64,000 bases of DNA from Podarcis cretensis (taxonomy: Eukaryota): contig OX638155.1 in assembly GCA_951804945.1 (NCBI GenBank), positions 29,450,001 through 29,514,000 of the forward strand, in the 5' to 3' direction. The notes beneath the pieces are model-generated. The model had not been told where the DNA came from. It made no database searches and worked only from the letters and a program-made list of their open reading frames with translations. A program made the translations under genes and the position numbers. Below, piece after piece: positions 1,022-34,929 of this stretch (its first letter is position 1; every line of letters starts with the position of its first letter).

Positions 1022-1228
1022 CTCTACAATAGCACCACTAGGCAGTCTAAGGAAGTGCCTGTACAGTTCTTGGAAGCCCCCAAGATGAACTGTGTATATA
1101 GATACATGAACAGTGACCCCTCCTGAGCTTCCAATAGATTTCAAGATTTCATTTGGGAGATGGAGGCCAGTATTGGAGACACCAGACTTATTAGCATGGT
1201 CTTTCCAGATATAATCACAGACAATGAC
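1022..1228 (-). CDS. OFCC1: OFCC1 coding exon (207 nt, phase 0-0): VIVCDYIWKDHANKSGVSNTGLHLPNEILKSIGSSGGVTVHVSIYTVHLGGFQELYRHFLRLPSGAIVE
   Basis: Minus-strand acceptor ccttcactAG at 1229-1230 and donor GAG|gtaagt at 1016-1021. 69 open codons continue in frame from the 25244-25403 exon. Peptide matches the OFCC1 C-terminal motif VxVxDYIW...HVSxYTV...FQELYRHFLRLPxGAIxE as recalled. Not in the ORF track. Confidence 0.9.
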
Positions 1229-1962
1229 CTAGTGAAGGAGAGATCATATGGTTATTTCATTTCTGCCATGAGCTTGGTCCCTATTCAGCTATTTTACCTT
1301 ATTCAAATTAATTTAATTTTTAAAAGAAACTCAGATCAATAAGATTCATCCTACAAAAGACATACCACAGGCAAAATTAATCATATTCATTATACTTGAA
1401 ATTGCAAAGTATACATGCCTGTCAAGGCAAATAAATAAATGTGATATACAACATTAGCAAACATTATAGATTGACTGGAGTCAGGCATCTCATTTATTTA
1501 TTTATTTCTTTATTTATTTTTGAAGTTAATACAAGTTGCCTAGCTGTGTTTTAATGCTGAAATACATTACAGCAGGGAACTGAAATGTGATAATTTTAGC
1601 AAAGCTGTAAATCTCATAATCAGCTTTGCATATGAGCAATCAGAAAACTTGCAGGATCTCGGTTTCTAAGGCTGCCAAACTTTATTTCTCAAAGTACCAA
1701 GCATAAGAACGGAAATTGCCCACTTTGCTCTGATAGTTGGATTTTGAAGACATGATGCATACAAATCTGTTAGTGATAATGTTTCAGATTCTTGGAAATT
1801 GTGGTTAAAAATATAACCTTGAAGCTCTGGTTTCTAAATATACATTTCACTTGAAGTGCATTTTGGGATATCCATTTTGCCCACTCAATTATATGTAATG
1901 ATATTACTGAGCATTCTGTTGTTGCACTCTTTACAACAACCCTTGGAAGCAACCTAGTATTG

Positions 1963-2470
1963 CCATATTGGCCTGAATATAAGTCTCACTTTTCCCCCAA
2001 ATTCCAACCATGAAAAGTTAAAGTGTGGCTTATATTCGCGACCTTACGGTATGCAACCAGGAGCATGGGGCAAACAGCACCAGGAGCGTAGCAAAGTGGT
2101 GGCAGCCCTGTGCGTAGTCCCCCATCCTCTCCCCCAAGGCTGGGAAGGGAGAGAGCAAGGAAGGGGAAAGGCTGTTGGCAACACAGTGCGGCTCCCCACC
2201 CCCTGCCCAGTACGCAGCCAGAAGCAGTAAGAATTGGAGTGACTTATATTCAGGTATACTCGAAGCTACCAACATGAGTTTGACCAAACTGCGGGAGGCC
2301 GTGGAAGACAGGAGTGCCTGGCGTGCTATGGTGCATGGGGTCACAAAGAGTCGGACACGGCTAAACAACAACAACAACATTCGGGTATTATTTCTTTTTT
2401 TCTCTTTTCCCCCTCCAATTTTAAAGGTGTGGCTTATATTCAGGTGCAGCTTATATTCGGGCCAATATGG
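1963..2470. mobile_element. Tc1/mariner (Tc2/pogo-like) MITE containing a Bov-B insertion
   Basis: 21-bp TIRs ccatattggcctgaatataag (1963-1983) / cttatattcgggccaatatgg (2450-2470), 1 mismatch. Internal repeats of cttatattc. Confidence 0.75.
2259..2378 (+). mobile_element. Bov-B (RTE) LINE 3' fragment
   Basis: LEATNMSLTKLREAVEDRSAWRAMVHGVTKSRTRL plus (CAA)n tail. TSD attc(a/g)ggtat at 2248-2257 and 2379-2388. Confidence 0.93.
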
Positions 2471-3777
2471 TGTTATCCCTATATTGGAGATGGTAGCGTA
2501 AGAGTAGTTTGCCTAGAGGAGGGGTAGGGAGCCTCAGGCATGAGGGCCAAATGCAACACCCTATGGCCTATCTATCTGTCTCATGTGACTCTCCCCAAGT
2601 CACATCCCCTTCCCAACAATGCTTCCTCTCCTCAGGCCACATTTCATAACTGTTCCCTCACCAGAAAGGGATTGATTCTTTGGGAGAAGCCATTATTGTT
2701 TTAAGTAGTATGGTACTGCTTTAACTGTGTAGTCCATAGGTTGAGATCACACACATTCCTGCATAAGAGCAAGCCCCACTGAACTCAGTAGGATTTACTT
2801 AGCAGACCCGCATAGGCTTACATTGTGAATATCCTTGCAGCTGCAGAATAGGTAGGAAGAAGAAGAAAATATTTATTTCCCAGAAAGGGCACAACTATTC
2901 ATTTCAAACAACCTTCCTTTTCTAAACAGGAGTATGAAATCCACTGTAAACTGAGAAATGTGTCTTTTGGAATATCTTTAAAGTGATATGTCCATTCAGT
3001 ATTGAATAATTCAGAATGCATATCTGTTAAGGAGTAGAATGCTTTATCTCTAATGTGCCCTGAATAACCTGAAGTAAGTGCCAAGCAGAAGACTCTGCTG
3101 TCATCTGAAATCTCTGTTGTGAAGTTAATCAAAAACGTCCATTCATCTCCTCATAGGCCAAATGTGGCTTCATAAATCTGCTGAGACAGACTAGTCAAGA
3201 GACAGTGCATATAGGACATGTCAGAGGCATTGAAGACAGCTATGATCTAGATTCACAAGAGCTGACAAGAGACCACAAAATGCCAGTACAGCATCCCGTA
3301 ATCCTAAAGTGAAATCCATCTTTCAGCAGAAAAACAAATTAAGGGCAATAATTCGGTGATAAGAGGCAGGCCAGAACAGGTTCAAAACGCTGAATATTTC
3401 ACAGGGTTGTTTAATTAAAACAGAAGCATGATGCTTTTAATTGCTCTGCAGCAGTTCAGCCTGAAATTAAGCCTGATGTGAATGCACTTGCAGTTGATTT
3501 AAGTTGTTATAATTGCAAAATATTACAAGGAATGAACACCAAGATAACACTCGAATGGGGCTTTCTAGTGCAAATCTTCTCTTCTCGGCTCTGTGCCAAT
3601 TTGTGAGGGAAGAGGTGAGAGAAAGGATCGTAAATGTCAACCTGCCCACATTCTTTAGCAAGCCTCACATGGATTTAAATTTCAGCTCCCGAATGTGATG
3701 CATTTTCCCACACCAACAACATTTTGGTAGTCATTGTTTCCTTCATGGTGGTGGGGGGGGGAGTCATTTAGGGAATA

Positions 3778-3982
3778 CAGTGGTACCTCAGGTTACATAC
3801 GCTTCGAGTAACAGTACCTCGGGTTAAGAACTTTGCTTCAGGATGAGAAGAGAAATCGTGCTCTGGCAGTGCGGCAGCAGCAGGAGGCCCCATTAGCTAA
3901 AGTGGTGCTTCAGGTTAAGAACAGTTTCAGGTTAAGAACGGCCCTCCGGAACGAATTAAGTACTTAACCTGAGGTACCACTG
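3778..3982. mobile_element. Tigger/pogo-like MITE
   Basis: Perfect 18-bp TIR cagtggtacctcaggtta and TA TSD. Confidence 0.9.
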
Positions 3983-4320
3983 TACATAAAAGGTTGGGAG
4001 ATTTCATTCCATGCATGCTAAATACAAGAGAGCATTTAGCAGTTTCAGAAGGTCCTATGGCAGAGTAGAAAGTAGGTTCCCTTCTCCATTCCAAGAGAGA
4101 GTTTTGGTGGGAAGCCTTCAAGTGCTCTTTGTCCTAGTTTACTAGATTCTTTCCAGACCACCTGAAATTTCCACACGCTCCATATGACCTTTTAAACTAA
4201 GGTGTTCAATCAAGGTTTAAACCAAGGGGAAGCTACCATATGGTGGCAGAATAGTGTTCTCTGGCCACACACCCCTTCTCCATTGTTGCTCCACTTGGTC
4301 TCAAAGCCAAGATCCACTTA

Positions 4321-4494
4321 CAGTGGAACCTTGGTTTTTGAATTTCATCCATTCCAGGAGCCATTCAACTCCCAAAACTGTTCGAAAACTGAGGCACAGC
4401 TTCTGATTGGCTGCAGGAGCTTCCTGCACTCAAGTGGAAACTGCACTGGATGTTTGGCTTCTGAAAAACATTCAAGAACTGGAAGGTACGACTG
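4321..4494. mobile_element. Tigger/pogo-like MITE (internally deleted)
   Basis: TA-cagtggaacctt ... aaggtacgactg-TA termini. Confidence 0.75.
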
Positions 4495-5079
4495 TATTTC
4501 CCCTTGAAGCATAAAAAGCAGAACATGGTGGCTTTGAGCAAATGAGCTTCCTGATGCTACTTATTCTGGATTCGCTTGACTTAGTCACCTTGGGAACTTA
4601 TTTGAAGGGCAGGGAAAACATTTCCCTGTGTGAAATAAATAAATCGTGTATTGCCAGATACCTTTATCAATCCCAAGCAAGAGTTCAGCGTTTGAATTCC
4701 TTCTACTCACTGCAGATAGGTACTCATGCAAACAGCACACATATATCTGAGAAACGGCACAATTTTTCTGCAGGAAATTTCTCTGCAGGTTCCAAGCTCT
4801 CAGGTTTAGCCACAGGCAAATAAAAATGTGTGCTTATTTGATAATATTTATTTATTCGCAACTTTAAACGTTTCAGTCACATTCCCAAGGATCAGAAGTA
4901 CAACCTCACGAATGAGGGCCTAAAATTACGAAACGTGGGTGGTGCGTGATGCAGGGCAAATGAGCTTTTGCAATTTGTGTACTCAGTTCCGTTCTTCAAC
5001 TATGTGCTGTGTGAAGAAACATTTCCTTTTGTCTGTCCTGAATTTTCCTACATCCCATTTCATTGCTCATCCCCCCACC

Positions 5080-5351
5080 CCAACACCAGGTTATTTATGA
5101 ACAAGTTAAAAAGTACGATTTCTAAGAGTGATCCTTGAGGAATCCCACTTCTTACACCACTGCGCTGTTAGAACTGTCCTTTTATTCCTCCACTGTTTCT
5201 CATTCTTTTACCACTTACCCTCTCCCCTTATCCAGTGACTGCTAAGGTTACTCACAAATATTGGGTGGGAGATTGTCTCAAAACCTTTCTGAAAGTCTAA
5301 GTACACCATGTTGATGGGCTCACCCTTATCCATACACTCTCAAAGAACTCT
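5080..5351 (-). mobile_element. Degenerate CR1 LINE RT fragment
   Basis: Reverse strand reads remnants of EFFE...DKGEP..VYLDFQK.F...SGIPQGS with frameshifts. Confidence 0.75.
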
Positions 5352-5508
5352 AAAAAAAAAAAAAATTAAGCAGGACTTGACCAGTGTCCAAATCCACACT
5401 GAGCCCAAATATTTCCCTGCCCTACCAGCTTTGATCAATGCCACATTCTAAAATACCAAGAAGTAAGATTTTCAGGCTATTAAGAAACCATCCATAAACC
5501 AGGAATAT

Positions 5509-5840
5509 TAGACCCTCCAAGTGTCCTTATTTTCCAGGGACGGTCCCTGAATTACAGAAGCTGTCTCAGTTTCTGATTTGATCTTGGAATGTCTCACTTT
5601 TCCTTAGGACGTCCCTATTTCCATCGAAAAAAAATTGGAGGGTATGGTAGGATGTCCCTATTTTCATGCTGGAGAGTATGGATGCGACTCCAAGCCAAGG
5701 AGATAAGTAACTATGCAAATTTTAGAAGACATCTGAAAGCAGCCCTGTGTAGAGAATTTTTTTTAAAAAATGTTTAATGTTTTATTATGTTTTTATATGT
5801 GTTGGAGTGGCTGGGGCAACCTAGTCAGATGGGTGGGGTA

Positions 5841-5894
<54 letters not shown>

Positions 5895-5970
5895 ATTATT
5901 ATTAATAATAATAGTAATAATAATAATATAGGAAATCCCTATTTTCATTGGAGAAATGTTGGAGGGTACG
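5509..5970. mobile_element. Composite non-autonomous DNA element carrying an L2-type tail and (ATT)n
   Basis: TIR core accctccaa (5512-5520) / ttggagggt (5959-5967), flanked by gaatat (5503-5508 and 5971-5976). gtccc/gggac subterminal motifs. Confidence 0.65.
5840..5928. repeat. (ATT)n/(AAT)n microsatellite
   Basis: Visible directly; explains the poly-Ile ORF 5787..6014. Confidence 0.95.
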
Positions 5971-6609
5971 GAATATCCTTTTGTGAAGACCCTGACTTCC
6001 TTTTAGCCTGCTAATTGAAGCCATAGTAATATGCCCATTTGTGCTAATACAGACAGCAAAATTTGCCGCAAGAGTACCTTTAGGTTTTGTGAATGAGGTG
6101 AGTCTGTTTGTGCTTTCTGAGTCTAAACTGCTTTATCCACTTTGCAACTGCTATCTCCAATATACGCTGGAGGGGAGAAAATGTTATCTCTGTATTCAAT
6201 ATGCTTGATTTGCAGGGAAACACACACACATAACTGTTCTAGCATTATTCTAACCAACTGCCTGTTAGAGCAATGCCCTTTATTAGTGGAGTGCACTTTC
6301 AGTAATGACTCTGTACAAGACAGCAAAAGATCACTGGCTGGTAAATGTCTGTGAATTCCATTTCCCACTGGAAACAAAACCCATTCTGAGCCACCAGCCA
6401 ACAGAGTCTCCTCCAGCTGCTGGAGAAGAAGGAAACAAAAGTGATTATTTATGAAGAGTGGCAAAATAAGATCCCAAGGAAGCCTGTCATAAAATGCTTG
6501 TTGCATAATACATGATGGATCAGTTCTATTATGTAACTTTCCCAAAGATATAACAATAAAGAGAGTTGCTAAGCATCATAGTCAGCATTAATTTACAGTA
6601 GGAAAAATA

Positions 6610-6738
6610 NNNNNNNNNNNNNNNNNNNNNNNNNNNNNNNNNNNNNNNNNNNNNNNNNNNNNNNNNNNNNNNNNNNNNNNNNNNNNNNNNNNNNNNNNNN
6701 NNNNNNNNNNNNNNNNNNNNNNNNNNNNNNNNNNNNNN
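6610..6738. other. Assembly gap (129 N)
   Basis: Run of N. Confidence 1.
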
Positions 6739-7136
6739 GGGACATAATAGGTTATTTATGTGTCATTTTAATAGAAAGGCCCAACCATCAAGATGGACAG
6801 GAGACTTTATCAGGACTGCTGTTTGCAACTAATCCACCAATTTAATACCCCAGGAAAATACCTGAGACAAAACTGGTCCATTTTTCTTATACACTCCATT
6901 ATACCCAAATCAATATGGGCTCTATTCATCTCCAATCCTTAGCTCGGCAGGTGCCCATCACACTGCACCCCTCCCTCTCGACTCAAAAGGCGAGCAATGC
7001 TGGTTTGCATTCTAAGTCTGCGGTTCAAGCACTGGAAGTGAATGCAGAAAGAAGAGCTGAATAACTTGGGTCGATCCATGCACAACTGGGAAATTAGGGG
7101 TGGATTATGAAGGAGACATATACAGCTCAAAAGGAT

Positions 7137-7253
7137 CAGGTAGGAGGCAATAAGAAAGGTCTATGCTAAGACCCCAGAGAGCTGCTGCCAGTCGGAGAAG
7201 ACAATATTAGGCTAGATGGACAATAAACTGATACGGTGTAAGGCTGCTTCCTA
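7137..7253 (+). mobile_element. 3' part of a tRNA-Ala-type squamate SINE (same family as 62470)
   Basis: gagagctgctgccagtc...ctagatggac...gcttccta matches the tail of the 62470-62650 copy. Confidence 0.65.
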
Positions 7254-7359
7254 ACAGGTAATGCTGTTTTGACTCGTCCATCCCCATTCTGCTAGGCAGC
7301 AGTGACACCACTGCCAGGTGTGTGCCTCTACCACTCCTCATTACAATGTAATTATGGAG

Positions 7360-7495
7360 CAGGCATAGGCAAACTCGGCCCTCTATATGTTTTGGGACTA
7401 CAACTCCCATCATCCCTGACCACTGGTCCTGTTAGTTAGGGATGATGGGAGTTGTAGTCCCAAAACATCTGGAGGGCCGAGTTTGCCTATGCCTC
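7360..7495. mobile_element. hAT-type fold-back MITE
   Basis: Near-perfect palindrome, caggcataggcaaactcggccct...gactacaactcccatcatccct with its mirrored arm. Confidence 0.88.
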
Positions 7496-8477
7496 TTTTG
7501 AGCATTCTTTCTTAATTCTTTCTTAATCAAGATTCACAAACTTTGGACACGCTATGGCGGGACAGTATTTATCCAATGGGTAACGTTTACAATTCATTTG
7601 AAAAATTGGAGATGAACAGCAACAGCAACCAACAACAAGAACTCAGAGGGCAACTGAATCCAAATACATCTCTTTGTGCCTCTGCTCTCCATCAAAATCA
7701 TTATCAACCCAGCGGCTCTACTGCCTGAACTCAGCTACAATGGTTCAATCAATGTCAGGACATTGTGGGTGCTAGCTATTGGGGGGAAATGGCCTCGCAA
7801 TGTGTCATCTTGCGGTTTTCAGAGCTGATTCATCACAGGTCTTTCCCTGGCCATGCTATTTGGACACCTGGCTTTGAACATAAAGAGGGGGAGATTAGAA
7901 AAAGAAGGAAGAACAGCAGCCAATTCCTGTAGAAAAGTGCAATTTCATTTTGCAGGATTAATTAAAATGTGGGAGATCAACTGCAATGCGAGGGAAGGCG
8001 TGGACCTTTTGCCTGTGGATCAATGTTCTGTGAGATATATAACCCTCTCAAAAGCAAAATGGAATTCCTTCAAATTGTCTTGCTCACCAGGCTCTCTGTT
8101 TTGAAGCTATTTCTTTTAGTCAGTACCAGTTTTTTCCTTGCATGCAGTTTTCACTTCTAACTCAAAGTTTCCGTATGTTAAAATATATGAAATCAAAGGA
8201 CACTTCTAAAAACAACTATTCTTAAATAAGCATCTAACATAAAGCCTCCATCTGTCAATCACCTGCTGTCACAATGATGGCAGGTGAGCTGTTTCTGCCC
8301 ACATGCATGGCCATCTGATCTTCAAGACTCAGTAGCTGCATGGCACGTTGCAATCCCTGACAACCTAGTGCCTGCAAATCCGCTTTGGCCTAGTTGAATA
8401 TTTACCTCTCCCACACAGGTATGGCAGGGGCCATAGCATGGCTAAAATAGCCCTAGCTGCACCAATGACAACAAATA

Positions 8478-9063
8478 CAGGCGATCCTTGTTTTGCACAG
8501 GGGTTACATTCTCCACCATGGGACGCGGGTAGCACTGTGGGTTAAACCACAGAGCCTAGGACTTGCTGATCAGAAGGTTAGCGGTTTGAATCCCCGCGAC
8601 GGGGTGAGCTCCCGTTGCTCGGTCCCTGCTCCTGCCAACCTAGCAGTTCGAAAGCATGTCAAAGTACAAGTAGATAAATAGGTACCGCTCCGGTGGGAAG
8701 GTTAACAGTGTTTCCATGCACTGCTCTGGTTCGCCAGAAGCAGCTTAGTCATGCTGGCCACATGACCCGGAAGCTGTATGCCGGCTCCCTCGGCCAATAA
8801 AGCGAGATTAGCGCCGCAACCCCAGAGTCGGCCACGACTGGACCTAATGGTCAGGGGTCCCTTTACCTTACATTCTAGACCCTGTGCCTGTTGGCACAGC
8901 CCATGAAAAGTGTTCCACTCCACCTCTGTTCTGCCCCCATCCCACCCTTTCAGTGATGACTTAGTGGTTTTTTAGTGACTTTGGGGGGCACTTTGAGGTT
9001 TGGCGCCATGCATGTGTGTGCGTTAGCAAATCAATCAGTCATGTCTAAACCAAGAGTTGCCTG
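8478..9063. mobile_element. Old Tigger-like element interrupted by a Sauria SINE
   Basis: TA-caggcgatccttg ... caagagttgcctg-TA; related to 53264-53470. Confidence 0.6.
8520..8867 (+). mobile_element. Sauria SINE, subfamily I
   Basis: gggacgcgggt head with Pol III A/B boxes, Bov-B-like 3' stem, ctttacct tail; TSD core ttacattct. Confidence 0.95.
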
Positions 9064-10014
9064 TATACATGCTTATTTCCTTGGCCTGTACATTGCCTGC
9101 AATTGGTACAAACAAATTAGTGTCAGCTTTGGCAAGCAAAAATGCCGTTAGATATGTTGCAGCGATAGGAGTCATAAAAGCAAAGGTTTTTTTTAAAAAA
9201 ACTCTTACTGATGAATATATTTCCTTACCAGTTGCATGAATTTGAATAATATTCTTTTAGCAGGTAATTATTCATGCACAGCTTCTCCTACTTGTACCGT
9301 TTATTCAAGGTGTCCTATTAAAGCGGTTGTTGGTACGTTGGCTTGATTTTGGAAAGGGGCTAGCAAATTCAGGAAGGAACTGAAAATCACTTCAAGACAG
9401 ATCCTTTTAATCAATCTCAGGCTTGCAGGAGTGAGGATTTATGAGGGTCTTTCACCCCTAGGTGTGATGCTAGTAACATAATCCAATGTAACTGTTAACG
9501 TTTGCATCTGGGCATCCACTGGAGAACCAAACCATAGCCGCGGAGCTAAAGAAGGCAAAAGGCATAACTTCAAGTGTTAATTGTTTGAGACTCTTATACG
9601 AAACATTCACAAACTACATGGGCTCAAGTGCTGTGGAGGCTACAGTGATGGGAAAACTAGGCCTTAATTAACTCCTGGGGTAATTTACAAGTATGCACAC
9701 CACACTAGTTGCTGGGCTTGCTAACAAGACCCTTGATCGATGGCATGTGTTCAGGAAGGGGGCTGAAATGTGGAAAATAATAGGGGGAGGGGATTGAGGG
9801 AACAGATAGGAACAAACTGAGGACCCAAAGCTCAAGGGGAAACCATGTTTGTGGAGGGGGGAAGAAAAAGGTTTCCACTTGCATATCCCCCTCAGCTTCA
9901 CCATTTTGTCTTCTCAAACACTGGCATCACATATGCGGGACAATGTTCATGGATATCTGATTCACACAATTGTTTCCGAAATGGTTCTTTCCATTCCTTT
10001 TCATAAAGCTTTTT

Positions 10015-10165
10015 GTGGCAGCAAGTTTGGCATAGTGGTTAGAATGTGAAGGCTAGAAACAACCCTATGAAACAACTTCATAGGGTTGTTTTTGAGAATA
10101 AGATGAGAAGGCAGAATGTATTCTGCCTTGAGCTCTTTGGAGGAATGGCACAATATAAAGGTAAC
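10015..10165 (+). mobile_element. MIR/Ther1-derived (Squam3-like) SINE, degenerate
   Basis: A-box ggcatagtggttaga, core tcatagggttgtt, tail gccttgagctctttggagga. Confidence 0.6.
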
Positions 10166-10196
10166 AGGTACATGCATACACACATATAATGTATAC

Positions 10197-10332
10197 CAGG
10201 CATCCCCAAACTCAGCCCTCTTGCTGTTTTGGAACTACAATTCCCATCATTCCTGACCACTGATCCTGTTAGCTAGGGATGGTGGGAGTTGTAATCCCAA
10301 AACAGTTGGAGGGCCGAGTTTGGGGATGCCTG
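10197..10332. mobile_element. hAT-type fold-back MITE
   Basis: TIR caggcatccccaaactc / gagtttggggatgcctg; 8-bp TSD at(g/a)tatac. Confidence 0.92.
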
Positions 10333-10502
10333 ATATATACACATTCCTTACCCAGTTTTGGAACTGTGGTAGAATCCAGATGTAACCAGTTGACTACAAG
10401 CATTTAACAGCCTGGACAAGAAGAAAGCGGGTGGCCTACAGTTCTGAATCAACTCTAAGCCCTTCCATAAAGCTCACCAAATCTCATTTGCAGGGCTGTC
10501 CT

Positions 10503-10761
10503 ATGGAAGTTGGAGCAAGTTTGTTTTCTCCTGCTCTGGGGGCTAGGACTTGAACCAGTGGCTTCAAGTTACAAGAAAGGAGATTACAACTAAACCTCAT
10601 GAAGAACTTTCCGACAGTAAGGGCAGTAAGAGTTTGACAGTGGATCGGTCTTCCTCAGGAGGTTGTGGATTCTCCTTCCCTGGAGGTTTTTAAGCAGAGG
10701 TTGGATGGTCATGGCTGCTTTAGCTGAGATGCCTGCATCGCAGGGGGTTGGACTAGATGAC
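10503..10761 (+). mobile_element. CR1 LINE 3' fragment
   Basis: Homologous to 46660-47280 (ttcaagttacaagaaaggagatt ... agggggttggactagatgac). Confidence 0.85.
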
Positions 10762-10839
10762 ATTGAACTAGATGGCATGTTTGTACCGAAGTGAATCCCA
10801 CAGAACCCAGCGGGATTTACTCTCTATTAATAATGTTCA

Positions 10840-11179
10840 GGACGCGGGTGGTGCTGTGGGTTAAACCACAGAGCCTAGGACTTGCCGATCAGAAGGTCGG
10901 CGGTTCGAATCCCCGTGATGGGGTGAGCTTCCATTGCTCAGTCCCTGCTCCTGCCAACCTAGCAGTTTGAAAGCACGTCAAAGTGCAAGTAGATAAATAG
11001 GTACCGCTCCAGCGGGAAGGTAAACGGCGTTTCCGTGCGCTGGTCTGGTTTGCCAGAAGTGGCTTAGTCATGCTGGCCACATGACCCGGAAGCTGTACAC
11101 CGGCTCCCTCGGCCAATAAAGCGAGATGGGCACCGCAACCCCAGAGTCAGCCACGACTGGACCTAATGGTCAGGGGTCC
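10840..11179 (+). mobile_element. Sauria SINE, subfamily I, tail-less
   Basis: Perfect 15-bp TSD ttaataatgttcagg (10827-10841 and 11180-11194). Confidence 0.95.
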
Positions 11180-12010
11180 TTAATAATGTTCAGGGTTGTA
11201 GGCTAAGGCTGCCAGTCTAGGCACACTTAGCTAAGGAGGAAGCCTCATTAAACACAATGGACTTACATCTGAGGCAACCTACACAGAACTGCACTCCATT
11301 TGCCATAGTCTAATGCCTTTATTAAACTGTCTAGGAACAAGGTAAATTAAAGGGGAATGGTACCAATTCAATTCATTCATTCATTTAAATGAAGCTGATG
11401 AGCTTTGAGTGAAATTTTTCCTGCCCTGGAAAGGCAGGAGTTCTACTTTGAATTTACTGCCAAGCCTGTCAGAATAAAGTGTATCACCCCTTTGCTTCTT
11501 TTATTTTTCTTGCAGAACAAAATGTGGGGTGTTTTATGCATTCGAGTAGAACAGCTTGTTTATTCCAGCTGTTTAATATTTGTCAGGGGACCTACCAACC
11601 TCAGGCAACTTTTTCAAGGTTCATTAAACCCAGACCACAGACAAAACCTGCAGACTCATGTTAAGCCCACCTAACCCTTTGGACAGCTGCAAGGCAAGGC
11701 GTGTGGAATGTAGTCACTAATCTGAATAATGCTCCTGAATGAGATCTTACACTGTGTATTCTCCTTGCTTGTTTCAATACAAATATGGGAGCTTGCTTAC
11801 CCAGGTAACTTCCTCTGAAATATTGTCATGGTGAAATTGTCAAAAGAACAAATGCAGTCTAATGCAATGGTTAAGCAGGCTAAAAGATAAGGTTGAAACT
11901 GGAAGCTAAAATCCTAATGTGACTTTTCATTATTACAAAGTGACCCTCTCTTTTTGCTTCATACTCTCATCTTTGAATGAAGGACTATAATGAAGGAGTG
12001 GAAATGAAAG

Positions 12011-12421
12011 TGGTATGGGAGATTTAATTTGCATTTAAGGGCCAAACTGCCTAATTCATACTTTCTGAAACATTATGTAAACAGAAAGACAGTTCTCCTT
12101 TGAAATCCGCAGTTCTCCAAATTTTGCAAAGTAGCTCTTGATCCAAGTAATAGGTGAAAAATGCATATTCCAGAGTAAGATAGCCATTAAAAATGCATAC
12201 ATTGGTGAAAATAACAGAGATGCATTATATCAGGTGAAATTGCTGTGTGTGTGTGTATGTAAAATTGCATATAAAATGTGTGCATTAAAAGAAATTCACA
12301 CATTTTAAAACAACGAGAACTCTTAAAAAATCACAAACTGTGAAATGTGAAGAACTGAATTTAAGATTAGAAAAATGAAAAACCTAGAGCAATTGAAACT
12401 GACAAATTCACTAATTCTTAT
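12011..12421 (+). mobile_element. AT-rich non-autonomous DNA element (hAT-Ac-like TAGGGATG family), degenerate
   Basis: Homologous to 44730-45154 (reverse) and 47989-49213; shared aaaatgcatat...ggtgaaaataac motifs. Confidence 0.65.
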
Positions 12422-18258: not shown

Positions 18259-18286
18259 ACACACACACACACACACACACACACAC
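18259..18286. repeat. (AC)14 microsatellite
   Basis: Visible directly. Confidence 0.95.
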
Positions 18287-23047: not shown

Positions 23048-24919
23048 TATCAGGGGAGGGTCTCAAGGTACAGAGAAGGGAAGGATTCAAAGAAGGAATG
23101 TGAACAAAAGGGAGAACACTGTGGATGCTGATAGAGCTTTGTTCGGTGCTTTCGACCTCAGTGCTTTCCAATGCTCCAGAAACACAGATTTCCACAGTGT
23201 CTGTTCAGGAACATCACACAATGGATTGCTTCCAAATAAGACCTAGTCATGCATTATTGAGCACAATAATCAAGCTGCCCTGGGAAGCTGTGAAGGATGG
23301 GATATAAATCAATAAAATAAATACAAGGAAGGAACAGAAAAGGTCAAGATCAGTGTCCATAGATTTGTAATGATGTAAATAGATTCGTCCTCCAGACTAG
23401 AGAAGGTTCCAGAGCTGTGCTCTGTTCTGGGGAAAGTTCATCTGAGATGGATTTCCTAACAGAATTTCTTTCAAATTTCCATCTTGGTTGTGAGTCCTGG
23501 AAGTCATGATGCCTTCTTTGCAGGCACTTGGATTGTGATAAGGTAAGTTTGCCCATCACTAATATATACCACTCACAGAACTATCATTACATACAAAACA
23601 GAAATAAGGTTTAATATGATTGGTTTAATAAGAGAAGATGGTTCTTATTGGGGATTTTGTTGCCCTTCAGATGACAGATGCTGAACTGTAGCTAATGCTA
23701 GTCCTACTCAGAGTAGATCCATTGAAATTAATGAACATCCATAGTTGGATGCAACCCAGTGGTTGTATTGTGATCTAAACTGAAGTTGGCTGACCGGGCT
23801 TGAATTTCCTGGCTTCATTTTGCTCCTCTCTTAAAAATATGGACATCCTTGAACTCTCTTATAATCTCCTAGATCTTTCCTAGAAAGAAACTGAGTGCAT
23901 ACTGAGTTTATTCTGAAAGAGGTTAAAGTCCTTTGTCAGGCAAATATGTGGGGAAAGCATTTCCTAAAGATAAAATTTCCCCTGAAGGTAGAAAGTTTGA
24001 AAACTACCACAATCTCCTGTTACATACCAGGTGCTAAATACTGACAAATGCTGATTTCTACAAATGTTGATGGTCAGATATTAAACATTTAAACCAGATA
24101 TCAATGGACTTCAAATTCCAAATACTAAAATATTCATCGAATATTTGAGCATTGAGAGAGCATCCAGAGAATATTAAGCCCCCAAATTCACAAAGGAGAA
24201 TTTCAGGCACTAATGACTTCACAAACGGCTAAGTGTACAGTATCTGCTTGTTCAATTGACACATTCACCTTTTTATTATGTTTTCCAGGGTCAAAACTCT
24301 CATTGAGAAAGAAACTGGAAAATAATTAGAACAGCACCAGATGTTTATAGCAGTGACAAGTGAGGCCATATATTTATACAAACTGCTGATCTTTCTCAGT
24401 TAAAGCTTTACAGACTTTGCATCCTTTTAGCTGCAGTGCTATTTCATTAGACAGAATCCCCACATTTACTAGTTTTTCACTCCTACTGCCTCCTTATTAA
24501 CCAGCCAAATAATGGAAATGCCACTGTCCCACCTAACCCACCAACAAATTTCTGGGCTGGTCTACATGTTTGGGGGATTTCCTGAAAACTGAAACCTTTC
24601 ACAGGTTCACTTAACTACTTTAACATTGTGGCCCAGTGCATCTCCGATAAAAGTCCAACTGAGGTGAGTTAGACTTACTACCAGGTAAGTGTGTGTTGAT
24701 CTATAGTAAGTGGACTATGAAGTGGCCTCCTTGAGCCAGTTTCCTCTCCCATGTCCTGATTCCTGATAAATGCCTTTAGGTGATTCTCCCTGACCAGATC
24801 TCAGAGTCAGTTCAGTGGTTAGCTTGTCCTCATCATGCCTTTTAATGCCGTTGGTCTTAATAATGGATATTTCACTGACTAATTTATAAACCCAGTTTCT
24901 GAACTTTCATAATATACTA

Positions 24920-25086
24920 CTGTATTTACGAGAATCTAATATTCCTTCGAATCTAATGCGCACCTCAACTTTCAAAACCTTGAAACCAAAAAAGTATTTG
25001 CTGGCACCATCAAATCTAATGTGCATCCTAATTTTTGTGACGTAGTTTGGCCAAGAAAGATGTGCATTACATTCGAGTAAATACAG
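24920..25086. mobile_element. Tc2/pogo-like MITE
   Basis: TA-ctgtatttacgagaatctaat / attacattcgagtaaatacag-TA. Confidence 0.8.
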
Positions 25087-25243
25087 TATGTGGATCGGGT
25101 CAGTTCATACCAGAATTAACAAATGAATTCCTCAAACATCCCTATATTATTCAAAGATGAATCAACTTTTAATGAAAAAAGAAGTTAAAGATACCCCTGA
25201 ACTAACATGCTGCAAAGCTCTGATGGTATATTATTCTACTCAC

Positions 25244-25403
25244 TTTTCGTTTTTCACCATTGATTCCTCTCCACTGTTCTGCCTTTTTCACAATGTAGCT
25301 CAACTCTTGGTTGGAGATTTCCAAGTCAAATGGAACAAATAAAGTTGCCTCATCACTCTGAATCCTTTTGAATATATCCATTAACCAGCCTTCATTGTGC
25401 ATC
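25244..25403 (-). CDS. OFCC1: OFCC1 coding exon (160 nt, phase 2-0): (R)MHNEGWLMDIFKRIQSDEATLFVPFDLEISNQELSYIVKKAEQWRGINGEKRK
   Basis: Acceptor ttttttctgcatttcAG at 25404-25405 and donor AAA|gtgagt at 25238-25243. Lies within ORF 25202..25495. Carries the OFCC1 signature DLEISNQELSYIVKxxEQWRGINGE. Confidence 0.93.
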
Positions 25404-26204
25404 CTGAAATGCAGAAAAAAGAACCCTTCATTACTGTAAAAGCTATACTGCCAAAATCTAGACAAATAAAAAAGAAAATAAGGAAGCAATATCACAATGA
25501 AGTATTATAGTTTAAACAGGTACGCTGAAGTAGGAACCACATCAAACAAAAGAAGAGAAATACCTAGCTCCAATATTATTATTTTTCTCATTCCTTTTAT
25601 TTAAATTCAATTTTTAAAAAATGCATGACCAACAAAACCACTCATGAAGCTTATGATGGTGATGAGTCCTGTCTGTCTCTGGCAAGGACTGGGATGATAA
25701 CTCACAAAATCTCTCAGGGAGCCTTTTTAGTTGTGGCTCCCAGATTGGAGAATGCTGTCCCCAGTGGGTTCTGCTTGATGCCATCTTTAGCTAAAACCTA
25801 TCATCTCTGTGAAATGAATCACGTCAAAATTATACAAATGCCAAATTTGAAAATTTTTGTTCTTTTTCTAGTTGTAAGGAGAGTCAATAAGTCATGCAGC
25901 GAACTGGATCCCCATTCCCTGATAACTGGGATGGGGAAACCTGACTAAAGTTCCTAAGTCAGGCAGATATATGTATTCATTCATTCATTCATTCATTCAA
26001 TCACTCACATCATTATGGTTGGAAGCAGAAATGTTGAACCCTTTTCATTAGGTTGAACCATATCTGCATATGTCTTTCATTCTCCTCCATTTGATCCTTG
26101 ATATCCTAATTGATTTGCAACTAACCTTTGTCAAGGTTAGCTAGACCTGCAGAGGAACTAAACTCTTGGAAGGATCTTGGCTTTGTTCTAATTATCTTAT
26201 GGCA

Positions 26205-26292
26205 CAATTTTGTATATAGATACTTGGATGTAATTTCCATTGAGTTCAATGGAACTTTCTCCTGAGGAACTACACATAGGATTGCAGCCTTA
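26205..26292. repeat. Ancient palindromic repeat (Penelope1_Vert-like)
   Basis: Core ttccattgagttcaatggaa; end cataggattgcagcc. Confidence 0.55.
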
Positions 26293-27482
26293 ATTATCAG
26301 CTTCATTCTAGCCTGTGGGAGGCAAATCTGGTAAATAATCAACAGAAGTAGTTTTGACGGATCAGTTCCACAGTTGGTTATTTGCCATCCAAAACAGGTA
26401 AAGTTTGCAAGTCCTGAGTTAATTTCATGTATAAAAAGCATTTCAGTGAGATTTGTGTTGAAGTGTAAATGGGCAAAAGATGCAAAGTTGATGCATACAA
26501 AAATGTCTATGTGCACATTAAGCCTAAATATCTTAATGTGCAACAAGATACTTCCGTAGCCACTCAGAAATGCATTTATCAATAGACATTTCTGTGCACA
26601 ATAAAACAAAAGTGTTTCTTTTTAAAAATCCAGGTATAATTATATTGTGTGCTTTGTATCTTCCACGGAGCGAAATGCTTGGGAAAGCTTCTGTAACGTA
26701 ACCAGTTTTGTCATGCATGCTTTGGTTTATTATTTTGTTATGAAGAATTTTAAAAGATGCATTGTCCCAATGAAGTACCTTTTTCCCTTTATTGTAAAAC
26801 ATTATGCAAAGATTGATCCAGAAGGGAAAGAATCTTTGATGATCCCACACCTGTTCCCCAGACAATGAAGATGTTCATAATATTCTCATAAAAATCTGCC
26901 TTACAAATGTTTTAATTTAAATTAATTTTCCTGAGTAATAAACGACAGCAGCTAAAACTTATGAAGCCATTTGAAACTATTAAGTCAATGATTAAGAAGG
27001 CATTAACATCTCAAAAACTAATTAACTAGACTACCAGTACATTGGACTTGTGTACAGCTTGCAGGAATGTAGAAGATTTGAATTCCCTTTGTAGGGTTTT
27101 AAATTGCGTATTCCCTCCCCCCACCCCGCTTGATACAATGGCGCTTCTGATAATATAAAGACAGAAATGATTTACTTGTGTGCAAACTATCCATCTCTAG
27201 CAATCTCATTTGCCAGTCTGAAAAAAAACATATATCCATATTGTTTAGCTAGAACACACATTTGTGTTGATATTAGCATTAGCTTCATTCCCCGCGCCCC
27301 ACCAGAGCTGATCTGTGCAAGGGTTCCACTCTTGATTTTCCCCATTCTACTTTCAATGAAGAGAAAGAGAGAGAAACATTCATGTAATGTTAAACCATGC
27401 ACAGTTCCACACCCACCTTAAAAAAGGAAGTTCAGGTCAATGGGAACCTAATAGAGTGGATTAGCATTCTAAGGACAACTTA

Positions 27483-27845
27483 AAGGTAAAGGTAAAGGTA
27501 CCCCTGCCCGTACGGGCCAGTCTTGACAGACTCTGGGGTTGTGCGCCCATCTCACTTAAGAGGCCAGGGGCCAGCGCTGTCCGGAGACACTTCCGGGTCA
27601 CGTGGCCAGCGTGACATCGCTGCTCTGGCGAGCCAGAGCCGCACACGGAAACGCCGTTTACCTTCCCGCTGGTAAGCGGTCCCTATTTATCTACTTGCAC
27701 CCGGAGGTGCTTTCGAACTGCTAGGTTGGCAGGCGCTGGGACCGAGCAGCGGGAGCGCACCCCGCCGCAGGGATTCGAACCGCCGACCTTTCGATCGGCA
27801 AGCCCTAGGCGCTGAGGCTTTAACCCACAGCGCCACCTGCGTCCC
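27483..27845 (-). mobile_element. Sauria SINE, young subfamily II
   Basis: (ACCTTT)n tail, intact CpGs, 13-bp TSD taaggacaactta. Confidence 0.97.
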
Positions 27846-28781
27846 ATAAGGACAACTTAGGATGGTTATTTATGAGCTAAATCTAGGCACCAAATCACTT
27901 GCCATAAGCTTTGGCGAACAGACCGTACTCATCAATTGCACTGATATTATGCCCATTGGTTTACAACTGGTTCACGGTTGATTCACTATCTGGGCTCTGT
28001 TTGCATTTCATGCATACAAATGGACAAAGGTTGTATCCAGTTGAGTCATACACAGAGAAGATCCCCTGAAATCAGTGGATGCAACTAGTCAGTTGATTTC
28101 AGTGAGTCTCCTGGGAATGTGACTTAGCCAGGTACAACCCAAATAGTATTCGTAACTAGTTCTGTGCCCAGCAGTCTATAAATCCAACCCGCCCCCTTGC
28201 ACCGAGGTGGAGGAGAGGTGGATTGGGCAGAGCTAGTGCAGTTTCCCCTTCTGTCTACTAAATGTGCAGGCAGGTGGAAGTGCTACTAGCATGATCATGA
28301 AATGTGGCATTCTGGAATTGGGTAGAGGTCTACTGGATATTGAGCTAGTCCCCGTACCCTCGCATGATGTCAGTGGGCCTCACTGCTATCCCAGTTCCAA
28401 GCTGGTTCAGCAATTATCCTGGCCCCCACCTTCTGCCCCAGCTGGCTGATGGCTGGGGTTTGGATAGTCCCCTAAATTAGCCCCAAAAAGTATTAGACTA
28501 CAACATGTTTCACAGCCCTCCTGCATGCCATCAGTAGCCTGAAATGGGGCAGGAGGGAAAAGCACATTGTGGCTGTTATTCTTAATCACTCCAGGTAAAC
28601 AGCTGTTTACAGGCCTGAATTTGATCTTAAAGCAAGTTTAAGAAGCTCTCTCTCTCAGTACATTTGCTACACCAAATCCGGCATCTTGTGGCATTTTGTT
28701 TGATGAAATCATGGCAGGCCATTTGGGTACAGAGGGAAGAATCTTACATTTTGAAATAGTGAAAAAGGAAGAAGAGCTTAC

Positions 28782-28930
28782 CTCATTAAATACAGGTACA
28801 GGGATGTAGACGAAATGAGAAACAGCATTGTGTAAAGCAGTAGGGTGATCAATATGCCCAGAATGCCAGATTCTTCAATTCTTAAAAAAAGCCAGTACAT
28901 CTTGGCACAGTCAGCAATGGGTTTGCCTGG
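28782..28930 (-). CDS. OFCC1: OFCC1 coding exon, visible part (5' end in N-gap): PGKPIADCAKMYWLFLRIEESGILGILITLLLYTMLFLISSTSLYLYLM(R)
   Basis: Donor AG|gtaagc at 28776-28781; phase 2 matches the next exon. Hydrophobic TM-like segment. The acceptor and about 5 codons are inferred to lie in gap 28931-29062. Confidence 0.9.
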
Positions 28931-29062
28931 NNNNNNNNNNNNNNNNNNNNNNNNNNNNNNNNNNNNNNNNNNNNNNNNNNNNNNNNNNNNNNNNNNNNNN
29001 NNNNNNNNNNNNNNNNNNNNNNNNNNNNNNNNNNNNNNNNNNNNNNNNNNNNNNNNNNNNNN
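28931..29062. other. Assembly gap (132 N) overlapping an OFCC1 exon start
   Basis: Run of N abutting the coding frame. Confidence 1.
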
Positions 29063-29775
29063 TATCATTTCTACTTCATTGTGCATGGTGGTTCACAGGG
29101 ATAGTTAAAGTCTGACAGCAACACTAAAGCGACATGACACTGTAGTAGGTGGTTTCTCTCACCTGTTGCTGGAGGAGTTGTCCATATTTAGGACTGAGAA
29201 GCTGTGCAATTGCTATGAGCTTGACCACTCAGTGTTTCAATTGTCTGACTTGAAAAGAAACTATATACTGTCTGATAACCAATACTATGGCCCAAAGGCC
29301 GAAACAACCCCATCTCGCCCCTGTGGGCCACTTTACAGAACACAAAAAGAAGGGCCCTTTCAGTGATTTTCAGTGTGGTCAGGTGATTTAGCCTCGTTTT
29401 GCTGGCATGTGCCATTCCACTGTCCCTGAATACCCCCAGAATGACACACCAATGTGATGTAGCATCACTGCATGGCACTCAGGAGGGGAAATGTCAATAG
29501 CAGCCAAATGGAGGCCAGAGGAGTTGCAGTGACTGCAGGAGTGGCTTGCAGGTGTGTCCAGGTGCATGGACAGGAGTACGTAGTTGGCTCTGGAAGTGCA
29601 CCCTGAGCTTGCGCCTCCCCCTCACTGTAAGCAGCAGCGACACCCTTGCTGGGAGGCTGTTACTGCAGCTCCACCCCACCTGGGGAGAGACACTCCTGGG
29701 AGAGTGTCACAAATCACACTACAAACATGCAAAAAGGGGGGAGCAATTTCACCCTCTCTTTAACCACTGCAAATA

Positions 29776-30027
29776 CAGTCATACCTCTTGTTACGTTTGC
29801 TTCAGGTTGAATCTTTTAAGGTTGCGTCCCACGGCGACCCAGAAGTAACGGAATGGGTTACTTCTGGGTTTTGCCACTTGCGCATGCACTGATGCTCAGA
29901 ATGACGTCACGTGCATGCACAGACACAGCGAATCATGACCCGCACACATGCAGACGTGGGTTGCGTTCTGTTCATGATGCGAACAGGGCTCCGGAACTGA
30001 TCCCGTTCACATCCAGAGGTACCACTG
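29776..30027. mobile_element. Tigger/pogo-like MITE
   Basis: TA-cagtcatacctc ... gaggtaccactg-TA. Confidence 0.82.
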
Positions 30028-33000
30028 TACTGATCTGATAACTTTTGCCCCAGTCCTCCTAAAAAGCCAGTACAGATTCTGTCAGGCTCAGCCTCTGAAT
30101 CACTAGATTCTATCTTAGGTGTATTCCTGACCTGCCAAGTTTTGCCTTGGCCCTGTTTGGAGGGCCTGCATTTTCAAAACCAATCATTCTCTTTATTTTA
30201 TTATTTCTGGGCCACCCTTGATTTTACATAACAGTCCCAGAATGCTTTCCAACATAATCTATAAAACAGAATATATATAATAAAGCCAAGCAATATTATA
30301 TAATCACATTGGCGCCTAATTATTTATGGAGGAAACAGAACCTCAGATATTTGCAGTTTCTGCTTCATACTGTTTATTATCACATGTCATTGCTTTTCTT
30401 TGTTGTGTTTTTTAAGTGCACTGTCAAGTGATCTGTACTTTCCCCTTTAATAATAATTTTTTAAAAATGAAAGTGAGTCAACATGGGTCCCTATTTTCCA
30501 GGGCTATCAATCTGTCAACTTTCATAAGCACTAAGTCCACTTAGAATTTTTTAAAAAGATATTAGATCATTAAAATAACTCATGTCACATTACCACAACA
30601 TAACATTTTAAAATGCTTGATCTAAAATAAATTGATTGGCAAGTAAATCTGAAATAGCAGCTGAAGGAATGCCAACGGCGGGAAGCAAAATTGCAAGTAC
30701 AAATATGGAAAACACATGTAAGGGATTCAGTTTCATTCTGAAATGGGATATGCCCCTTTTGCGTGGCATTCAGTCAAATGCGTTCCTTGTGCAGGTAGTT
30801 TTGGTGGGAAATATTGGCAATTTTCAACGCAGAGCATGATGTTATTTTTCAGAACTTCTCTTATCCAAGTCAAATTAGAAGTGGTCACAGACATTCAATG
30901 CTCAGATCTGTTTCTGCCTGAACTTGCTGCAGAGGATGGCAATTTATCCAAATTCATCTCATCATCTTCTTTAACCAGAAGCAGGGGCTCTGATGTTCTG
31001 CTAAGTGTTTAATGCATGTTTGAGCAAACACAATATCTATAGGGCGAAACCTGGCCTGTTGACATCAACAGCAATTTGAAAAGATGTGGCCCAGTATTTC
31101 CCCAGTAATTCGGCAAAGAATGTTTTGGGGTTTTTTGATGGCGCTTATTATCAACATGTGTAGGTCTTAGCAGTTCAAGAATCTGCTAGCTAAACCTGGT
31201 TCCCAGGGTATAGGATGCTGCTGCTTTGTCCTGACTGCCTGGTTTAAGATGTGCATTGCTAAGGCTCCACCACAGACTCAGGCAGTTAGTGGAGGGAGGC
31301 AACTGGCAAGCTGAGCTGAGAGTCCTGGGGAAAATCTGGCCCCCTCCCCCCAAAAAAGTTAATAAAACAAATTTTTCTTTCTAATTCCTTCCCTATCCTG
31401 AAAGCACTATTCATACATTACCTGCATGCAGAATACACCCAGTTTCAAGCTGGAGCAGGGCTGCACTCACATCCCACCCCTAACCCCAAACTACTGTGCT
31501 AGTTCTGCCCTTTGAGTAGCTGCTGGTACGTGCAAACTCCTTTGTGCCAGCAGATATTCAAAAATAGCCATGGTTAGATGTTCCAGTCATGTGGAGCATC
31601 TGTGCATGAGCAACTGTTTGCACAAAGGCTGGTGTCCCCAGACAGACAACCATGCTCAACAAGAGAATGGGTTTTTTTCTGTGGTAGCCCTAGAAAGGCC
31701 TGCTTTGGCATCTTCCAGGTGCCATTATGCAGATACATATTTTATCCTCCTGGACATTTGGACAGTGCTGATGGTCAGGCTTTTGGTATTCATTCTACAT
31801 GGAAGGCATGGACATTCCATGCTGTTTTAGGTGACTTTTTATTATTTTATTGGCTTTTTAAATGGACTTCACTTTGTGAAGTGAGATGCAAATAAACCAA
31901 AAACTTGCAGTCATTGGGGGGGAAGTGCTGGTACCCATGGAGGCTGGTCCATTAAGGTGACTGGATCATGGCCCCACCAACCTCAGCCTGTGCTAAGCCA
32001 ACCTCCATCTTACTTGAAACCAGACTAGGGGGTGAGACTGCAAGTCAGTTTCCTCCTTCTTAGTCTCAGGGTTGCTCTTTTAAAACTGAGCAGGGAGCAG
32101 GATGGGGACCAAATTAGCTGCCTCCGCTTACCATTGGTCTCCTTGCCTCCCACCATACCGATCCTGCAAGGGCACCAGTGTCTAGGGCAACAATGGTTGT
32201 GCATGTGAAAAGAGAGGCCTTGATGCAGCTTGAAACTGTGAGTGCTTTGCACAAGAGTAATGTGTGAATTAGGGCTAAAACCATCCAAGCTTGGTCCATT
32301 CCACTGGCCAATTCTCTTCCTCCTGAAAGCATTGGAAAGGGCTACTTTTGCTTCAGTTCACATATTGCCTTGGGGGCACCTCCTTTCTGCATAGTAGAGG
32401 AGCAGATGCATCCACAGCCTCATGCAATTAGTGCCCACTTCTATGCTCCTTCTCCCTTAAAAGAGAGGGGAGAAATAGCACAACCGGGCCCTCCATACAA
32501 GCATCCGGTGGCATTGTGCATAGAACCTTACTTCCCCACTTGCAAAAAGGCAGTACCAATATAATGCCTAAAAAAGTTGTAGACATGAGTGAGAGCAAAG
32601 GTTTGGCATCACAACTGTCAAAGTTTTTATTAAAAACCCCACACTTTTTCTACACATTTTATGCCATGCAGCTATTGCTTTGGGGGAGGGGGTCGGGAGA
32701 CAGAAGTTATACTACATTATTTTTAGTTCACTTCTTTAAAAATATTCCTTAGCTTTCCTGTGATATTGCCGTCATCTCTAAAGTTGCTGCAATTGTCAGA
32801 GCATTTCACTTTAAAGTTTTTTTAAAAAAATCTATGTTTTTGGTTTTAGTTTTATTTATTGGGAAGCAGTGGGAACAAGGGAGATCATATGTCTTACCAT
32901 CAAAACTGTGATTAATAACATAAAATTTTCTAATTTTTTATTTTTTGGGGGGAAAGAAGACAACTTTTGTATGCTGTCGCCAGGGGTGGAATTTCATATC

Positions 33001-33072
33001 ATTTGATGAGTCATTGAAGAAAACAAACTTTTACATCAAGGACTCATATCAAAGTTATTTTAAGTGACTTAC

Positions 33073-33325
33073 CCCCAGGAAGGCATCCACTACAAACACT
33101 GCCAAAGGGTCTAGCATTGTCCACAGTCCCCAAGCAATGATCAGCTTTGACAAGTAAGAAGGGAATGAGCCAAACAACAGCTGACAGCCCCATCTCATCA
33201 GAACCATAAGAAGCATCACTGTGTTCAAGGTCAAAGGTCCCACCACAATCATGGCCAACTCTTCACTAGTGCGTACCAAAGAGTTCTGGTAGCACAAATC
33301 CACCGTATGAGGATAGAACTGGAAT
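33073..33325 (-). CDS. OFCC1: OFCC1 coding exon (253 nt, phase 2-0): (K)FQFYPHTVDLCYQNSLVRTSEELAMIVVGPLTLNTVMLLMVLMRWGCQLLFGSFPSYLSKLIIAWGLWTMLDPLAVFVVDAFLG
   Basis: Strong acceptor cctcttttatttctAG at 33326-33327 and donor GGG|gtaagt at 33067-33072. Open frame; OFCC1 motifs RWGCQLLF and GLWTxLDPLAVF. Confidence 0.93.
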
Positions 33326-34710
33326 CTAGAAATAAAAGAGGAAGCAGAGGGTTCGAGAGACAAGTAGGTTATCTTACTTGATGGGTATACATCACTTACA
33401 CAGTTATTTATGTTGTGCATTTTAATAAGAAAGCAGCTGAAAGATGTATCTCATTGTGCCTCTCCAGTGATGAAAGGTTGCTTTGATCCAGCAGAGTGGA
33501 AGGGGGATATGATTTCTCCCTCTGCAGGCCTCTTATCTGCTTATGAGGGCTGGGGGAGCTTCAGAATGACATTGAAAATGACACAGGAGAATGGGAATGT
33601 TACAGAAATCACATCTCTGTGTTTTCACTCCATGCATCCTCAGGAACAAAGAACCTCCTATAGGTGGAGGAACACCAATACAACTCTGGATTTGTTATCC
33701 AATCATAACTGAACAGAATTTGGGTGTGGGTTTTTTAACACACACACACACACATGTGCCTCTTAAGGCACACTCAGAAAAAGTGTCCTGGAAATCAGTG
33801 GGGCCATGTAGGTATCTAGTGCTCTTTCAGAAGGAACGTCTTTCACCCCTCTCTTAGCAGAGTGAGTAAATTTATCTCCCAAGCCTTGACATCAAGACAT
33901 TCTGTTCTATGGGAGCTGTGGTCCTATTGTTCTGTTTTGAGCAGTGGTATGTTGTGACCCTGCAAGGCAAGGTTTCAGTGGAAACCCTGGACAGCTCCTT
34001 GCAAGTCTTAGACTGCAGAGTTGAAATACTGCTTCAGCAGCAGTCATCATGAAACTGAACTTTAAGTAGGAGCTGCAGCTTTATCTCAGTAGCCAGATTC
34101 ATCTTCCATGATAGCAGTCATTGATTCTGACATAGTGGGGGAGACTGCGGTTCCACTAGCGCTTCTAAGCTGGAGTCAGAGGACTTCTTCAGGCTGGAGA
34201 GGTACTAGTACTTTTGCATGTACACCTAGGGCTGGACCAGAGGGCAATTCCCATTATCATTCCAAATACCTGGTCTCATCCCCTGAATTAGGAGAGTCTG
34301 GCCCCAAGGTCATGACACTAACCAAAAGTCATGACCAAAGGGAGAAAAAATCCAGAACTGTGAAAGATATCAAAACATCAAGTATAGGATTTGCTGCCTG
34401 AATGTATGTTTCAGAACAGACCAAAAGTTTTAAGCTCTTTGCCTATTGGCTAGTCTTTCTTTCAGTAGTGTGGGAAGAAAACAGAGACTGAATGAGATGC
34501 CTATAAGATACTTCTGCTGTCAGCTTTCACAGATAGTCCCCACCACCATTCCAATCTTCACAATTAACCAAGTGAATGGGACGTAAGTAAGAGTGTGGCT
34601 GGTTGCCTATAGACCCAAAGGTGATGCAAACGTTATTGCGCCTCTCTTTTTGTGACATTATGTAGCATAGTGCTATGTTTTCCAAAACGTAACTTCATTT
34701 CCATACTTAC

Positions 34711-34929
34711 TTCGTGACAGGAACTGAAATAGCATGAAGTAAGACCCACTGGCTGAAATAATGAAGATACAGTCGGGCAAACCAGAGCAAAACTACTAGC
34801 AGCATAATAGACCACAGATCCCAGGAATACCAGTGTCCCCTTCCCAGTTCAGAAATGATGGCATATACACCAAAGTAGAGGTGCTTTGTGATGCTTGTGG
34901 ACACTCTGGTTTCAACCGCAGGATGGCAG
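34711..34929 (-). CDS. OFCC1: OFCC1 coding exon (219 nt, phase 2-2): CHPAVETRVSTSITKHLYFGVYAIISELGRGHWYSWDLWSIMLLVVLLWFARLYLHYFSQWVLLHAISVPVT(K)
   Basis: Acceptor tctgccattgcAG at 34930-34931 and donor AA|gtaagt at 34705-34710. AA+A of the next exon gives Lys. OFCC1 motif LWFxRLYLHY...ISVPVTK. Confidence 0.92.

Follow-up and report, generated by a model that had tools for sequence, protein, structure and literature searches.

The conserved membrane part of lizard OFCC1/ojoplano: a predicted site-2 protease fold without the catalytic residues

We analysed a window of 64,000 nucleotides from the lizard Podarcis cretensis (contig OX638155.1, positions 29,450,001 to 29,514,000; positions below count from its first letter), which holds five minus-strand exons of OFCC1, the gene called ojoplano (opo) in medaka. 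The OFCC1/ojoplano gene is intact, and the five exons cover the C-terminal third of its protein, the part that spans the membrane. Structural predictions suggest that this part quite probably folds like a site-2 protease (S2P; MEROPS family M50), an intramembrane metalloprotease, with HYxxQ where the catalytic HExxH would stand. On balance, we favour the reading that OFCC1 is a pseudoprotease which would grip client membrane proteins and steer their trafficking without cutting them. The gene is already annotated in Podarcis and across vertebrates, and that a lizard has kept it is an expected and, by itself, ordinary finding. The fold assignment and the eukaryote-wide range of the family, both probably, though not certainly, new, make a poorly understood morphogenesis gene a directly testable case.

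The OFCC1 gene and its five exons in the window

A genome search with the Podarcis muralis protein placed 20 of 20 matches on the minus strand of C7:29.445-29.581 Mb, within a single stretch of 136 kb. The 20 coding exons rebuilt from these matches stay open for 1,022 codons up to the first stop, and 984 residues are identical to the P. muralis protein; acceptors are AG in 19 of 20 exons and internal donors GT in 19 of 19. A four-residue exon carrying the start codon was not found in this search. The last coding exon lies 5.4 kb past the left end of the window, and the upstream exons match P. muralis at 92-95% and encode NPAF, an NPxF motif. A protein search with exon 19 returned 82 matches headed by P. 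muralis (97%), and every gene-named match was OFCC1. Over the part encoded in the window, identity is 98% to P. muralis (323 of 329 residues), 65% to quail, 57-59% to mammals, 55% to Xenopus and 52% to zebrafish ofcc1 (a comparison that did not include the proteins of medaka, mouse and chicken). The Pfam family OFCC1 (PF15680) was detected in five of six proteins in a scan of full-length relatives, the sixth being a C-terminal fragment, and reached E 4e-57 in the P. muralis protein (P0002). Exons of an AP-2-family (TFAP2) gene, its paralogue not distinguished, lie 216 kb upstream on the same strand, matching the human arrangement in which, we assume, TFAP2A adjoins OFCC1. Named matches, Pfam family, single 20-exon locus and AP-2-family neighbour together agree with the identity that a sequence-only reading of the window had proposed, and the frame is open outside the window too, where that reading had envisaged possible disablements. 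The gene is thus almost certainly an intact OFCC1, with no notable departure from its known orthologues. The P. muralis protein, itself intact, bears the UniRef name 'Orofacial cleft 1 candidate 1 (pseudo...', a label probably taken over from the human gene name, and many OFCC1 orthologues are labelled 'uncharacterized LOC'.

We number the window exons 15-19 (exons 1-5 of the sequence-only reading). Exon 15 (34711..34929, minus strand as are all five; 219 nt, phase 2-2) has AG/GT sites, is matched by 74 of 82 homologues, and encodes an amphipathic helix, membrane helix 1 with H-Y-x-x-Q (His at 34763-34761, Tyr at 34760-34758, Gln at 34751-34749) and the start of a beta-hairpin. Exon 16 (33073..33325; 253 nt, phase 2-0) is backed by splice sites, homologue matches and a joint in presumed RNA, and contributes hairpin sequence, membrane helix 2, in which the Gly of a G-P motif is invariant (33240-33238), and membrane helix 3. 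Exon 17 (28945..28782; 164 nt, phase 0-2), with a visible GT donor and matches in 74 of 82 homologues, carries the conserved Asp of D-x-x-K (28912-28910) and membrane helix 4; its letters are visible from 28930. Its acceptor and first 15 nt (five codons) fall within a run of N at 28931-29062, so that its 5' limit and phase were set by homology. Exon 18 (25244..25403; 160 nt, phase 2-0) encodes a post-membrane segment with D..R and P-x-D-x-E, among the most invariant residues of the family, and exon 19 (1022..1228; 207 nt, phase 0-0), to which all 82 protein matches map back, a predicted beta-sheet of the C-terminal domain (R-x-F ... G motif).

Donors are GT in all five exons, and acceptors AG after a pyrimidine tract in four. 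Joined, the exons give 334 codons with no stop and five unknown codons, and four hydrophobic segments. The five minus-strand exons with outer limits at 1022 and 34929, the phase pairs, the roughly 330 stop-free codons and the several hydrophobic helices of the sequence-only reading were therefore all recovered, the 5' phase of exon 17 by homology. Random window pieces of the same lengths would all be stop-free in one given frame with a chance of about 1.3e-7 (uncorrected), and a blind minus-strand scan for splice sites ranked three of the five exons in its top five. As judged from sequence comparison, homology is the stronger argument for the exons than this chance figure, each exon being matched in order by 74-82 of the 82 family proteins.

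Transcript evidence came from sequencing runs of related organisms that we guessed to be RNA, none being recorded as such. The joint of exons 15 and 16 (33325 to 34711, CT..AC ends) was present in two of these runs, from two organisms and two studies, and in neither of two DNA runs. Exon 18 was covered by contigs of all three presumed RNA runs, and one relative's contig showed the joint of exons 16 and 17 with 15 extra letters, consistent with the inferred start of exon 17. The joint of exons 17 and 18 was not among the best 15 of 39 joints listed, since a high-copy repeat swamped the joint table. Compared with eight other lepidosaurs, the lineage carries 31 specific substitutions among 283 scorable columns. 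Across 94 distant homologues, 5 of the 31 substituted columns are conserved, as opposed to 110 of the 252 that stayed unchanged (Fisher p=0.003), and the lineage retains 33 of 35 near-invariant ones. Exonic differences listed in relatives (at least four synonymous and at least three non-synonymous, in roughly 222 and 765 sites, respectively) do not suffice to estimate dN/dS. The claim of purifying selection on the membrane part is therefore supported indirectly, for the branch to lacertids, by where substitutions fall and not by a dN/dS figure.

The membrane domain and its likeness to site-2 proteases

The sequence-only reading was right that this part spans the membrane; a site-2-protease-like fold was not recognised there. 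HExxH is kept in none of 123 homologues, which have an HYxxQ-type motif in its place. The His is conserved in 121, Tyr or Phe in 119, the Gln in 111 and the Asp in 117 of them (His699, Gln703 and Asp812 are the cleft residues in P. muralis numbering). This Asp stands at the register of the S2P motif N-x(2-3)-P-x(n)-L-D-G as G/A-D-x-x-K-L, lacking the N-P part, and the GP motif follows the His by 46 residues, compared with 46-47 in SpoIVFB-like proteins. Within and next to the membrane helices, polar residues are near-invariant from lizards to glaucophytes.

In structure comparisons, three solved S2P groups ranked top by two methods on two predicted models, with His, Gly and Asp in register, at middling Z scores and high root-mean-square deviation. 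Like the M50 proteases (SpoIVFB of B. subtilis, RseP, M. jannaschii S2P), OFCC1 has a predicted core of His helix, beta-hairpin and GP helix, and a broken third helix running to the Asp. It differs from them in having Tyr or Phe for the catalytic Glu and Gln for the second His, a preceding C2 domain, a following alpha/beta domain that is unclassified, neither a PDZ nor a CBS domain, and the opposite predicted membrane orientation. Sequence-based signals were faint: one of 52 members matched the M50 profile weakly (E 0.0025), and hhalign to M50 gave probabilities of 0.2-10%, also weak, with the best subset above shuffles. Foldseek and Pfam yielded no significant match for the membrane domain, a sequence profile search of solved structures gave low-complexity matches only (best E 0.002, none an S2P), and an ESM Atlas search with residues 644-990 found nothing beyond the family's own cluster. 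The first AlphaFold model, built from 37 vertebrate sequences, was poor (mean predicted confidence, pLDDT, 38.6) and served as a secondary check only. A short-protein search with RseP, which had RseP-type fragments among the 120 matches listed, was not used.

PF15680 spans the first 113 residues only and is encoded, with the NPxF motif, upstream of the window; neither the C2 nor the membrane domain is covered by a Pfam family. Residues 255-445 (exons 8-9, also outside the window) are predicted to form an eight-stranded C2 beta-sandwich, whose best structural and language-model matches are calcium-independent C2 domains. Its look-alikes (AIDA, PI3K, DOCK DHR-1, jouberin, NPHP4 and RPGRIP1) set it among known C2 domains at 8-16% identity, with no Pfam C2 match. 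The most invariant residues of the family (D, R, P-x-D-x-E and R-x-F) follow the membrane helices, in exons 18-19. Whole-model searches gave no solved-fold match for the C-terminal alpha/beta domain, which was not folded alone, so that this negative is uninformative.

With a threshold of E 0.001, a profile search retrieved 1,713 cluster representatives; among the 150 listed, 30 were looked up for organism: 11 were non-animal, 5 animal and 14 without an organism name. The non-animal ones comprise four choanoflagellates, Chromosphaera, Pygsuia, Platysulcus, a chrysophyte, Aphanomyces, Amorphochlora and Cyanophora; molluscs, annelids, echinoderms, a brachiopod, a nemertean and a hemichordate also have family members. 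The window peptide aligns to eight protist proteins at 27-38% identity over about 300 residues (E 2e-75 to 3e-31). Since the family occurs in unicellular eukaryotes, eye folding cannot be its original job. The N-terminal Pfam domain with NPxF was found in none of 23 invertebrate and none of 8 protist proteins, and therefore appears to be a vertebrate addition.

A proposed client-binding role and its rivals

Since the predicted S2P-like fold lacks the cutting residues (HYxxQ for HExxH), OFCC1 likely grips rather than cuts membrane proteins. The C2 domain would dock on cytosolic membrane lipids, and the old substrate cleft, made of His, Gln, Asp and the beta-hairpin, would bind an extended juxtamembrane or transmembrane segment of the client. 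In vertebrates, the added NPxF tail may compete for Numb, NPxF being a motif bound by phosphotyrosine-binding (PTB) domains, and thereby keep integrins at the basal surface. Binding could proceed by addition of a beta-strand, by analogy with SpoIVFB, which holds its substrate by beta-sheet addition (PMC11486902). Client trafficking might thereby be governed as it is by iRhoms or EGY3. The iRhoms resemble the proposed OFCC1 in having a protease fold without catalytic residues and acting by client binding, sending rhomboid substrates to degradation (PMC3149277), and differ in the fold itself, which is that of rhomboids. Arabidopsis EGY3 is an S2P-family protein without HExxH that stabilises other proteins (PMC10978774); unlike OFCC1, it is a chloroplast protein recognisable as an S2P by sequence, and we liken the two by description only. 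Next to these two, OFCC1 would form a lineage of its own, split off much longer ago and equipped with a C2 domain; if the reading is true, it would provide an animal case beside the pseudoproteases already known from rhomboids and plant EGY3.

In the fish optic cup, Opo counteracts the endocytosis of integrins that Numb drives at the basal surface (PMC4931046, PMC5742352, PMC5380436), and the role in epithelial and optic-cup morphogenesis that the sequence-only reading gave for medaka opo is in print (PMC4931046, PMC5742352). The literature consulted describes Opo as a transmembrane Numb antagonist only and offers no mechanism for the conserved core; none of the papers listed links OFCC1 to intramembrane proteolysis, C2 domains, cilia, site-2 proteases or pseudoproteases, the primary Opo papers (Development 2009, Dev Cell 2012) lying outside the search. 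If true, the pseudoprotease reading would give mutagenesis three residues and a hairpin as targets, and it predicts that clients bind in the membrane. It also provides a way to examine why the mouse knockout is mild. The knockout report, which the sequence-only reading omitted, describes no eye or face defect, and an allele that lacks exons 3-4 yet still yields transcripts of exons 18-21 (PMC3248446); the ancient core may therefore have survived in the knockout.

The chief rival accepts an intact OFCC1 and holds that its membrane domain is an unrelated four-helix anchor, its S2P likeness a common helical arrangement, and that function rests on the C2 domain and the Numb-binding tail. The middling Z scores and high deviation, the missing Foldseek and Pfam matches, the weak M50 profile match and the opposite predicted orientation all speak for such an anchor. 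We nevertheless regard it as unlikely: three solved S2P groups came top by two methods on two models with His, Gly and Asp in register, and the polar residues are near-invariant from lizards to glaucophytes, beyond what an anchor needs. Another possibility is that the fold is still active, with a His/Gln/Asp metal site and Tyr for the catalytic Glu, and works as a hydrolase of unusual type or as a sensor of metal or lipid. Conservation of these four positions in 111 to 121 of 123 homologues is indeed tighter than a decayed site would suggest. Gln, on the other hand, is a poor zinc ligand, no homologue keeps HExxH, and a Glu-to-Gln change in HExxH abolishes the activity of SpoIVFB (PMC11486902), which together make activity distinctly improbable.

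It appears very improbable that, as in humans, the gene has recently become a pseudogene in the lizard or is under relaxed selection there. The human gene, given as disrupted in the sequence-only reading, is indeed classed as a pseudogene (PMC7555810), knockout mice are nearly normal (PMC3248446), and the protein evolves fast, as the 57-59% identity to mammals over the window part illustrates; for P. cretensis, no run recorded as RNA holds the stretch, which is evidence neither way. Against decay stand the 1,022-codon frame across 20 exons, the avoidance of conserved columns by lineage substitutions (5 of 31 against 110 of 252), the 33 of 35 near-invariant columns kept and the spliced contigs in relatives.

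Beyond the pseudoprotease reading itself, we put forward as tentative, and rather doubtful as a whole, that OFCC1/Opo proteins are ancient, eukaryote-wide, C2-anchored S2P pseudoenzymes, a counterpart of iRhoms, whose dead cleft would bind integrin or other single-pass clients; the cleft might be extracellular, possibly at the ciliary or flagellar membrane, with vertebrates having added the Numb-binding tail and humans having lost the gene. The ciliary role is suggested, as a possibility, by the C2 look-alikes and the host lineages only, the protists with OFCC1 being, we presume, mostly flagellated. As a separate observation, Ofcc1 marks inner hair cells of the mouse cochlea (PMC10716316) and is stated, without data shown, to be testis-only in adult rats (PMC9263446); both are settings of ciliated or flagellated cells.

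Other features of the window

The window has two runs of N, at 6610-6738 and at 28931-29062, the second covering the start of exon 17. Inside a 34.8-kb intron, a stop-free frame of 352 codons with reverse-transcriptase-like motifs (45764-46819, plus strand) is matched by a bird protein labelled reverse transcriptase, or by similar chimeras; we take it to be a long interspersed nuclear element (LINE) of CR1/L2 type. A 189-codon frame at 35336-35902 (plus strand) presumably resembles the 3' part of an RTE/BovB LINE. The segment at 27480-27850 is a very high-copy repeat, with a depth in the millions in a DNA run, which we assume to be Sauria-SINE-like (a short interspersed nuclear element). Simple repeats include an ATT microsatellite (5841-5904) and a tandem pair of a 63-bp unit (39679-39805). 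At 34111, two related species carry 26 extra bases that are absent from the window.
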